A stretch of 64,000 nt of DNA from a virus. Under the pieces are notes generated by a model. The model was not told the origin of the DNA and searched no databases. It saw nothing but the letters and a program-made list of their open reading frames with translations. Location of the stretch: UHGV virus genome UHGV-1370141; one strand, given 5' to 3'. Numbering within the stretch: the first letter of the stretch is position 1; the number at the start of each line of letters is the position of its first letter. The translations under genes and the position numbers were made by a program. Shown one piece after another: positions 14,499 through 16,456 of this stretch.

Positions 14499-14738
14499 CT
14501 ACCCCGCCATTAAGATTAATTCTGAGTCGATGGCGATACCCGCCTCCAGATCTTCTTCGGTATCGCGTAAGAAACGGTTTTCCATGCTGATAAGCTCATT
14601 GTGTAACACCATGCTGCTAGACACTTCGTCTACGTTTGTGCTGGACATAAATCCGTTATCTGGGCGATAAGCCAGCGCCAAATCCATCTCCGTGGTATCG
14701 ACTAAAAGTCTAACCTGTAATTGGTCGCCGTCGAAATC
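14499..14738 (-). CDS. RNA polymerase beta' N-terminal-like subunit, exon 2 (starts at the DFDGD catalytic triad)
   Basis: Frame of track ORF 14499..14783 from codon 16 onward: DFDGDQLQVRLLVD...GFMSSTNV aligns with beta' NADFDGDQMAVHVPL...MMSTNNI. Confidence 0.75.
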   Translation of the reverse strand, partial: DFDGDQLQVRLLVDTTEMDLALAYRPDNGFMSSTNVDEVSSSMVLHNELISMENRFLRDTEEDLEAGIAIDSELILMAG

Positions 14739-15088
14739 CTGTTTGTCCACTCCATTCCTTTTGGAGCAGGTGTGCAATGACACCCTCCCATGTTTTCACA
14801 TGGGCACAGACTATATCATAACCGTAGGTATTGCTACCCGTAGGTCTCCCCCACTTCGCCGCTAAACTAAGCAGCTACTCTACTCGGTTTTACCCTTTCG
14901 ATAGTCGTTGAACGATTTTCATCGCTGCTGGTTATCCATTATCACAACCCTTAGCATTATTGGTTAGCATAGGCTATCTTACGAATTGTTTCTGACTTTC
15001 GCCACCCTGTCGGGATCGTAAGCTTTAGGAGTTTCCAGCAATTCGAGGGATACGCACTAGAGGTTTCCCGTCTAGTGGGCCAAATTTT
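14739..15088 (-). ncRNA. group I self-splicing intron (ORF-less, about 350 nt) interrupting the RNAP beta'-like gene
   Basis: Separates ...KAPNA from DFDGDQ...; 5' exon ends in U, intron ends in G; contains P-like ACGGGAAAC, Q-like AUCCCGACAG, R-like GUUCAACGACUA and S-like GAUAUAGUCU elements with complementary GACUA/UAGUC (P7). Confidence 0.8.
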
Positions 15089-16456
15089 AGCATTCGGAGC
15101 TTTGATGACGCGATCGGAGATACGTAACGAACACTGTGTAACATCAGGGTTAACAGCTGAGATAAATAATGTCTGAATAGACAACTGTACAAGCGTCGGG
15201 TTTCGTAGCGCTGATATCATCAGGCCGTAACCGCCACGAGACTCCTTAATAAGTTCGTTGATAATTTCATGAACCAACGGTACGTACTGCATTGATGCAA
15301 ATGCAATAACACGTTCACACTGCCGTGGTGTGAAGTTCCGTCGACCGAGTTTGTTTTCAATAGCTACAGATTCTAACGTCACTAGCCAACGCCAAGGTGC
15401 AATAACCTTCATAGCGTCATGCGGTTCTGAGATTGGAGAGATTGTTACACGACCACCCCACGGGATGTGTGTTGAACCTAACTTGGCACGATAGAATCCA
15501 GGTTTACCTTCCATCACCTCCTGACGATGGTCAATATAGAAGTACGCTAACTGGCGATTTGCTTTTAATGCGCGACTAATAATGAAATGGGTTGGGATGC
15601 GTCGTGCATTAGTATAAAGTAACGCGATGTTCTTAACCGCGTCTATTGCACCGGTATAAACAGGATCGATAAAGATACCCTGACGTCGTTCCTCCGTAAC
15701 GATCAGTTTGGGTGAAATGATTGGAAGATGAACCGGAAAGAAAGTGTGTGATTGTTCTTCGAAGAACTTTTTCCACTCTAAGCGAGTACGTTCGCTCTCA
15801 TATCGGTTATTTTTCGTTGGTGGATAAATTTCTTTCCAGACTTCAGGAGAAGTTAAGATATTGAATATTGTTCGATGGTGGTCAATAAAATTCCTAATGC
15901 CGCGTGGAACTTGATACTCGCTAAAGATACGTTTGATTATTCGGGATCGAGTACCTTCGTCTTTATCAGGTTTATAGCACGGATCTAACATCCACATCAA
16001 TAAATCAGAACCACGTTCTACGGTCACTTTGTTTCGGTTAAACTTCTTAAGTTTAGAACCGAAGAAAGCGTTAAACATCGACCAGAATCGTGGGTTAATA
16101 AAGTTGCCTATTTCCTCCGGGGCACGAATCCAGACTTCTGAAACAATACGATGTTCTGTCACTACATAGCCGCAGGTAGGACATCGCATACCGAGATTAT
16201 ATCGATGAACGATAGGTGCTTCACAATCAATACTACAAATGGGTGCCGAATTTAGCGTCTCGTCGACTGTCCGGTTCTGTAAGATTCGGTTAATCAACTC
16301 TGACGTCTCAATGGTGTCTTTATATTTCGCAACATCATTGATAATCATCGGCGGTTTATAGCCCTTTTCCTCCGCCTCTTTGAAAGCGTCACGTAACATT
16401 TTATCGTGACTGATTAATCGCCCTGATACACCGAAGTATTGTAATCTGTCTTTCAC
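15089..16456 (-). CDS. RNA polymerase beta' N-terminal-like subunit, exon 1
   Basis: GFYRAKLGSTHIPWGGRVTISPI resembles [32 protein letters not shown] resembles NRAPTLHRLGIQ; Cys cluster CPTCGY near the N-terminus; exon ends ...RVIKAPNA immediately before the catalytic motif. Confidence 0.75.

Follow-up and report, generated by a model that had tools for sequence, protein, structure and literature searches.

Evidence for a group I intron without an open reading frame at the catalytic NADFDGD motif of a non-virion RNA polymerase gene in an uncultured giant phage

In phages, RNA polymerase (RNAP) genes are among the targets of group I introns. The td, nrdB and sunY introns of phage T4 and the introns in the DNA polymerase genes of SPO1 and SP82 (I-HmuI) belong to group IA2, which has the paired regions P7.1 and P7.2 and endonucleases of the HNH or GIY-YIG type, and of which versions without an open reading frame (ORF) also exist. 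Insertion of group I introns into essential phage genes, at conserved codons of the active site, is textbook knowledge (review PMC12908238). For the RNAP genes of chimalliviruses, introns in phiKZ gp55 and gp180 and the endonucleases gp56/72/179 have been documented (PMC11512511; PMC10914365). An annotated Intron_gpI is present in phage Goslar, and gp210 of phage PhiPA3, the beta gene of the virion RNA polymerase, harbors a mobile group I intron that functions in phage-phage competition (Birkholz et al. 2024, Science; PMC11620839). Here we describe a related arrangement in the virus genome UHGV-1370141, of which a stretch of 64,000 nucleotides (the window) was analyzed. A gp55-like gene on its minus strand, which codes for the N-terminal beta'-like RNAP subunit (beta'-N), is interrupted by 350 nt (14739..15088). 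We are highly confident that this insert is an ORF-less, IA-type group I intron, located between the alanine and the first aspartate of the catalytic motif NADFDGD in an ortholog of phiKZ gp55.

The nearest described counterpart is the intron of phiKZ gp55 itself (PHIKZ055/PHIKZ056/PHIKZ056.1), which resides in the orthologous gene and the same catalytic motif, has similar core elements R and S, follows a 5' exon ending in U, ends in G, and gives rise to a spliced protein that forms a chain in PDB structure 7OGP. The phiKZ gene is arranged as exon 1 ending in ...KAPN (AAU), the HNH gene 56, the ribozyme core, and GCU GAU UUU GAC (ADFDGD). Its insertion point, between KAPN and ADFDGD, thus differs from that in the window, being situated 3 nt (one codon) upstream, and the phiKZ intron is far longer (1372 nt; L007 2169-3540), includes an HNH/NUMOD endonuclease, and can be aligned with the window intron only over a short core. 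PhiPA3 gp210 resembles the window locus in that a chimallivirus RNAP gene is interrupted beside conserved aspartates of the catalytic region, but there the beta subunit of the virion enzyme is affected, and a nicking HNH endonuclease is present, the activity of which was shown experimentally; the window ortholog of gp210 (53718-57884) is uninterrupted. With the classical IA2 introns, the window element shares predicted self-splicing, residence in a presumably essential gene of nucleic-acid metabolism, and insertion at conserved active-site codons, and T4-like phages, e.g. JSE and ECD7, contain sequences with 95% identity to its P7-P7.1 segment. In contrast to these introns, it interrupts a multisubunit RNAP gene rather than the gene of a DNA-metabolism enzyme, and its phage, judging from relatives, probably separates transcription and translation in a phage nucleus.

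The first-pass annotation of this DNA had termed an ORF-less intron in an RNAP active site unusual. This was overstated, given the position of the phiKZ ortholog intron and the fact that published SPN3US-like genomes have members of this family inserted at the very same point. Group I introns in this very gene are already established by phiKZ, and a specialist will find nothing surprising here. In the searchable literature, we found no paper in which an intron is explicitly described as interrupting the NADFDGD motif. The added value of the present locus is modest and consists in an intron-present/absent pair, an apparently recent transfer without an endonuclease, and the motif as a possible multi-site hot spot.

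On sequence grounds, the interrupted gene (16456-14499, minus strand, to which all coordinates of gene and intron refer) is the phiKZ gp55 ortholog and encodes beta'-N of a non-virion multisubunit RNAP. Exon 1 (15089..16456), recognized from its ORF and translation and from matches to phrog_2987 and PDB 7ogp_A, comprises 456 codons from a GTG start to the end ...RVIKAPNA; the last codon, GCU for Ala456, occupies 15091-15089, and the 5' exon accordingly ends in U. Exon 2 (14499..14738) consists of 79 codons and a stop (14501-14499), begins with DFDGDQLQV..., and opens at 14738 with GAU UUC GAC GGC GAC CAA (DFDGDQ) in the frame phase of exon 1. Both reading frames are intact. Without splicing, the ORF runs from 16456 to 14957: it contains CSLRISDRVIKAPNA, continues with 43 unrelated codons inside the insert and terminates at a UAA stop (14957..14959), which yields a product of 499 amino acids that has the tail KIWPTRRETS... 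and lacks DFDGD. Joining of the exons produces a single ORF of 535 amino acids, in which KAPNA is directly followed by DFDGDQ.

This 535-residue product matches phrog_2987 ('RNA polymerase beta subunit') from end to end (E = 7e-161), and its best match of known structure is phiKZ gp55 (PDB 7OGP chain A, whose entry name for 7ogp_A joins PHIKZ055 and PHIKZ056.1; E = 2e-37, residues 68-506). The alignment with phiKZ gp55 continues into exon 2 and is ungapped across the junction at KAPNADFDGDQL, where the query reads ikapnadfdgdqlqvrll and phiKZ lkapnadfdgdqlnltlm. The phiKZ protein is the N-terminal beta'-like subunit of the non-virion RNAP and is contained in the purified active enzyme (PMC4666361). 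Homologs were detected by tblastn in 280 phage records; the nearest cultured ones, in Erwinia phages phiEaH2 and Asesino and Salmonella phage SPN3US, have about 67-69% identity, and each of them is one unbroken piece. A megablast search with the gene in a collection of 50,697 phage records gave no match, relatives being found only at the protein level, and Pfam searches with the separate exon products were uninformative. The source of the window is thus a giant phage that has not been cultured and that has phiKZ, SPN3US and phiEaH2 among its relatives.

The insert is exactly 350 nt long (15088..14739), starts with AAAAUUUGG and ends in ...GGACAAACAG, with G14739 as its last base. Its limits are defined by an intron-less relative, the IMG/VR contig IMGVR_UViG_3300045988_095954 (L009), which has 98.5% DNA identity to window positions 12002-18957 and is separated from the window by a single gap of exactly 350 bp, equivalent to 15088..14739. 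Since the flanking bases differ on each side, this boundary is fixed and allows no sliding. Removal of the intron renders the gene collinear with L009 and with the phiKZ gp55 and SPN3US orthologs. The exact 499-residue read-through product was found on five independent contigs, and an assembly artefact is therefore ruled out. The Rfam family RF00028 (Intron_gpI) matches 15099..14787 on the minus strand over its full length (model positions 1-253/253) with 63.7 bits, at a gathering score of 50 bits; the E-value of 8e-14 places a chance origin of the intron signature far out of reach. This is the sole intron match in the 64-kb window, also when a permissive E-value threshold is applied. The splice-site U of the model falls on U15089, and the wobble partner of this U on G15081. 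The terminal G (omega-G, 14739) at the 3' splice site is invariant in 8/8 aligned relatives and coincides with the edge of the L009 gap. The coordinates, the U at the end of the 5' exon and the terminal G given in the first-pass annotation are thus all borne out by sequence and translation. Its identification of the insert as an ORF-less group I intron agrees with the Rfam score and with covariation, its exact boundaries with the intron-less L009, and its spliced reading of KAPNA and DFDGDQ with phiKZ gp55 and the intron-less homologs.

Nearly full-length relatives of the intron, 70-72% identical, are present in published genomes. ORF-less copies are inserted at exactly the position used in the window, after codon 456 and ahead of Asp, in the Escherichia phages Lh1B and EC001 and in the Salmonella phages JN03, SPLA3, SPLA5c and 1252, and copies with an HNH gene are found at this site in the Seoulvirus genomes SaP7 and Proteus phage 7. 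Klebsiella phage phiKp_32 (with an HNH ORF) and Raoultella phage VB_ZK_P1 (without) contribute further copies at the same site. The RF00028 scores of the relatives that were checked (Lh1B, SaP7, Proteus phage 7, phiKp_32 and VB_ZK_P1) range from 51.9 to 69.4 bits. The introns of Seoulvirus (SPN3US-like) phages represent the same family, with the same insertion point and the same helices, in which compensatory changes have accumulated; they differ in the exon codon before the site, GGU (Gly), and in the corresponding guide GCC. Protein identity of the host genes to the window gene is 66% for Seoulvirus and only 22% for VB_ZK_P1 and phiKp_32. The HNH ORFs of the sibling introns (287-339 amino acids) are accommodated in loop L1, closed by an extended P1 stem. 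The 287-residue ORF of SaP7 and Proteus phage 7 contains NUMOD1 above the Pfam cutoff and a weaker HNH_3, and matches a PHROG HNH endonuclease (E = 8e-28); the sibling endonuclease is of the I-HmuI-like HNH type.

The window copy can be folded into a complete group I structure, all pairs of which are canonical. P1 (15079..15091), placed by the Rfam model and by exon/guide covariation, pairs the exon bases G15091-C15090-U15089 with the guide C15079-G15080-G15081, so that the wobble U15089.G15081 marks the 5' splice site; within the intron, A15088 and A15087 pair with U15082 and U15083. It is followed by the P2 hairpin (15055..15077; helix 1), with nine pairs, four of them changed on both sides, and 100% of the alignment cells paired. 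The 5' strand of P3, UCCCUC (15045..15050), joins the 3' strand GGGGGA (14847..14852) in helix 2 (six pairs, three compensatory, 100% paired). The P4-P6 domain (14912..15040; helices 3-12) is composed of P4 (15040-15035, UGCUGG, with 14931-14926, CCAGCA), of P5 with a branched extension (15030-14935), in which 6/7 pairs of P5a are compensatory, and of P6 (14925-14912). P7, the guanosine-binding helix (helix 13), forms between A[C]GACUA (14902..14908), a part of element R, and UAGUCU (14808..14813), a part of element S, and makes a pseudoknot with P3. All of its six pairs are maintained (100% paired), with one compensatory change, in SaP7. Counted from the bulged C, the second pair is G-C, and we take this G-binding pair with its adjacent bulge to be comparable to P7 of Tetrahymena.

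P7 is separated from the 3' strand of P3 by two covarying hairpins, P7.1 (14901-14884) and P7.2 (14875-14858), which together span 14858..14901 (helices 14-16; 5/6 pairs of P7.2 compensatory). Downstream, P8 (14821..14845; helices 17-18; inner part poorly aligned by MAFFT) is followed by P9 (14804-14787), P9.1 (14785-14768) and P9.2 (14767-14749), which together span 14749..14804 (helices 19-22). The Rfam model ends at 14787, just past P9, and P9.1 and P9.2 are located outside it. The loops L2, L6 and L9 are GAAA, and L8 is GCAA. P7.1/P7.2, together with P9.1/P9.2, are marks of the subgroup IA architecture known from the T4 and SPO1 introns, and we assign the window intron on this architectural basis as IA-like. 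Of the core elements proposed in the first-pass annotation, R (GUUCAACGACUA), S (GAUAUAGUCU) and the P7 complementarity GACUA/UAGUC stand, and the assignments of P and Q do not: the supposed P element ACGGGAAAC is really the loop of the P2 hairpin, and the supposed Q element AUCCCGACAG belongs to the P5 extension, the true P4 strands being UGCUGG/CCAGCA.

This structure is upheld by covariation. Eight members of the family, representing about five lineages, were aligned, a small and phylogenetically lumpy sample. In this alignment, 92% of the cells are paired in the curated P2-P9.2 structure, compared with 34-46% when the 3' partners are slid by 1-3 columns, and 39/92 pairs are changed on both sides, compared with 8-11 in the slid versions. 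None of 500 shuffles matched the observed covariation values (0/500). RNAalifold, applied blind to a six-sequence alignment, recovered the same helices with compensatory changes in 35/91 pairs; its additional pairings (GCC with exon 2, CGU/ACG within R, GUCU with GGAC) are invariant or clash with P7 and were dropped. P1 covaries between exon and guide as well, with either C-G or G-C at exon position -2: GCU is combined with GGC in four copies (window, L008, VB_ZK_P1 and phiKp_32), and GGU with GCC in three (Lh1B, SPLA3 and SaP7). An alternative 6-bp pairing at the 5' junction, CCGAAU/AUUUGG, is not conserved in the relatives, places no U.G at the junction, and was rejected.

The deposited genomes leave these introns unannotated, and two coding sequences (CDSs) are listed for the gene in Lh1B, EC001, JN03, SPLA3, SPLA5c, 1252, SaP7 and Proteus phage 7, labeled 'beta subunit 1'/'beta subunit 2', 'alpha subunit' or hypothetical in the GenBank records OK428535, OM456492, MT679221 and OR413581 (L001, L003, L004 and L091). 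Taken literally, this would mean a truly split gene, the two products of which, a beta'-N fragment with an intron-encoded tail and a small DFDGD fragment, assemble without any splicing. Jumbo-phage RNAP subunits are indeed split elsewhere (PMC7598289), and an in-frame GTG is available at 14783. However, this GTG is buried in the P9.1 stem, and the sole purine-rich run upstream directly abuts it; the break would fall in the NADFDGD loop, which is continuous in all homologs with solved structure; the gene is uninterrupted in the 98.5%-identical phage L009; and what separates the two parts is a complete group I ribozyme, the helices of which covary. Because CDS 1 reads into the intron and the 'subunit 2' CDS starts at differing, arbitrary Met or Val codons, some of which are downstream of DFDGD, we consider the two-CDS records to be annotation errors that hide the intron. 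A separate DFDGD polypeptide, which the first-pass annotation had named as evidence that would speak against an intron, is seen in homologs only as this annotation artefact, and we regard a split gene as very improbable. Even less credence can be given to a 3' splice site at G14787, where the Rfam alignment ends and where the junction would be in frame too, with 16 additional residues (RVSLHTCSKRNGVDKQ) before DFDGD. This in-frame site is ruled out by L009, which lacks all 350 bp, 14786-14739 included. Furthermore, phiKZ gp55, SPN3US and others read NA(D/G)DFDGD without an insertion, and the extra 48 nt form the conserved, covarying P9.1/P9.2, after which the invariant terminal G follows.

Several observations weigh against an active, splicing intron. 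The 350 nt contain no homing endonuclease ORF, tblastn with the HNH proteins of the sibling introns revealed no homolog in the 64-kb window, and the case for active mobility of the window copy is accordingly indirect. P1 is short, with 5 bp (three exon-guide and two intron pairs) and a 3-nt loop, and direct reading of the intron junctions revealed no convincing P10 helix. For phiKZ, long-read transcriptomics (PMC10914365) yielded, under its conditions, no reads in which the predicted RNAP introns were spliced out, and the removal of introns of this kind is therefore not easily seen in vivo; for the window copy, splicing is predicted from the sequence. The missing endonuclease, the minimal P1 and the phiKZ reads would also suit a decayed, non-splicing relic, which would make this allele the pseudogene of a defective or dying phage lineage. 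Such decay is nevertheless hardly compatible with a window copy in which every core helix is canonical and the conserved J and R/S nucleotides fit the Rfam consensus with high posterior probability. Both exon frames are intact and retain 68% amino-acid identity to cultured phages, the allele recurs on five contigs, and a 98% identical intron exists in a phage whose exons are 25% different. The active non-virion RNAP purified from phiKZ infection contains this subunit, and the size observed for native gp55, 56 kDa, is compatible with a 055+056.1 product made by splicing (PMC4666361). We therefore hold a relic to be most unlikely and retain the reading of a splicing-competent group I intron.

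Splicing would follow the standard chemistry of group I introns. The folded pre-mRNA would present U15089.G15081 in a P1 formed by the exon bases GCU and the internal guide GGC, and an external guanosine, bound at the G-C pair of P7, would attack after U15089. G14739 would then take the place of this guanosine in the binding pocket, and the freed exon 1 would attack after G14739, whereby GCU would be ligated to GAU in an mRNA for the 535-residue subunit. The ligated junction would read ...CCGAAUGCU joined directly to GAUUUCGAC..., with VIKAPNADFDGDQLQVR as the junction-spanning peptide. Translation of the unspliced mRNA would lead to a 499-residue protein without all three Mg-binding catalytic aspartates, and a functional non-virion RNAP would therefore depend on splicing. 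The gp55-like gene is probably essential, and the middle and late transcription that its enzyme would perform, by analogy with phiKZ, may require the splicing reaction as well. Should a phage nucleus be formed, as in related phages, the intron would be removed away from ribosomes.

The window also contains a beta-like RNAP gene (53718-57884, minus strand; phrog_3148, 1388 amino acids), which adjoins a paralogous beta'-like gene (57888-59513, minus strand; phrog_2986, 541 amino acids) with a DYDGD motif at 58070. Both are uninterrupted, and together they presumably encode the virion RNAP, so that early transcription would not depend on splicing. In phiKZ, PhiPA3 and Goslar, the counterparts of these virion RNAP genes contain HNH introns in this region.

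The distribution of the intron points to recent movement. A further IMG/VR contig (L008), the name of which has the same sample prefix as L009, carries the intron at the identical site with 98.0% identity (seven differences, three of them in loop L1), while its exons are only 75% and 73% identical to those of the window. This disparity indicates that the intron has recently moved between lineages. Window and L009 differ at 97 positions over 6.6 kb. Nine of these differences, all synonymous and in third positions, are clustered at -16..+17 of the junction (window 15072-15105 and 14722-14738), and none occurs in the approximately 280 nt upstream. Clustered changes of this kind look like the co-conversion expected upon intron gain, or like a diverged homing site. 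The flanks match L008 only in part, and the donor of the flank tract may have been a third lineage. We infer that recombination between phages living together has recently added or removed the intron, and that it belongs to a mobile family targeting this site, of which the window copy would have lost the endonuclease gene or never had it.

Window and L009 thus provide a clean natural intron-present/absent pair with 98.5% identical flanks, apparently from one metagenome. Together with the conservation of the intron, which far exceeds that of the surrounding gene, this pair leads us to conclude that endonuclease-less introns still move between co-occurring giant phages. In IMG/VR, a strict pattern that includes P9.1 retrieved the L008 contig only. 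A looser R...S pattern matched 42 loci, of which only the one on the L008 contig is an intron at the DFDGD site; all others are introns of other genes. Two of the R...S matches (L107 and L117), both in other genes and with the R...S spacing of the window intron (111 nt), are located on one 227-kb jumbo-phage contig with the L008/L009 sample prefix (IMGVR_UViG_3300045988_175328), which suggests that single genomes of that community contain several related introns.

Inserts are found at no fewer than four different points of the NADFDGD motif: between N and A in phiKZ, between A or G and D in the window and the SPN3US-like phages, between D and F in Vibrio phage 2 TSL-2019, and between G and D for a second insert of VB_ZK_P1 and phiKp_32. 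The introns at the first three of these positions each follow a third-position U, and a guide match is clear for the insertions before D and between D and F, and only plausible by eye in phiKZ. In Vibrio phage 2 TSL-2019 (L089 2458-2849), the intron sits one codon downstream of the window position, between NAD and FDGDQM, and has a matching GUC guide. The catalytic Mg-binding loop of the phage RNAP thus looks like a repeatedly invaded site. We put forward, tentatively and as a reading we ourselves think doubtful, that the 21 nt of NADFDGD-coding DNA form a hot spot for homing that is contested in jumbo phages with a nucleus, and that an ORF-less copy, far from being a dead relic, acts there as a cheap 'immunity allele'. 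If so, the ORF-less intron would destroy the target site of the HNH enzymes encoded by its siblings in co-infecting phages and would be spread in trans by these same enzymes, which would extend the competition model of PhiPA3 gp210 to the non-virion RNAP. In a weaker variant of this reading, splicing may gate the production of the non-virion RNAP in the phage nucleus, where folding would proceed without assistance from ribosomes.

In VB_ZK_P1 (L006 2859-3181) and phiKp_32 (L005, record positions 15959-16269), the first intron is followed by a 12-nt micro-exon, GAUUUUGACGGU (DFDG), and then by a second insert of 311 nt, at 2871-3181 of L006, that starts with AAACGUAUUGCC, with a P1-like GGU/GCC pairing, and ends in ...AAUGAUG. 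Exon 3, GAU ACC AUG (DTM...), restores NADFDGDTM. This second insert had no Rfam match even at E <= 1; it folds at z = -3.3 and shows partial similarity only, to unannotated regions of Aeromonas jumbo phages.

For annotation, it follows that the window gene should be entered as one spliced CDS of 535 amino acids, and that the same applies to several deposited SPN3US-like genomes. The gene is embedded in the order also seen in SPN3US, with an ORF of 612 amino acids upstream and an SbcD-like gene downstream. The 612-residue ORF (16545-18383, minus strand; phrog_8316, function unknown) corresponds in position to the nuclear shell protein gp54 of phiKZ. Neither phmmer against PDB nor BLASTP against phiKZ gp54 gave a significant match, and it is synteny only that points to a putative role as a nuclear shell protein (chimallin). 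Between this gene and the GAGGA ribosome-binding site of the RNAP gene, an inverted repeat rich in G+C (minus strand, GGGACAGGGG...CCCCTGTCCC; window ~16470-16520) is followed by a pyrimidine/T-rich run and may be a terminator or processing hairpin; a promoter and terminator scan of 14300-16700 returned nothing above shuffled expectation and did not flag the repeat. Elsewhere in the window, a tRNA gene is present at 30040-30116 (minus strand; Rfam 40.1 bits), which ARAGORN classifies as tRNA-Ile with the unusual anticodon AAT.

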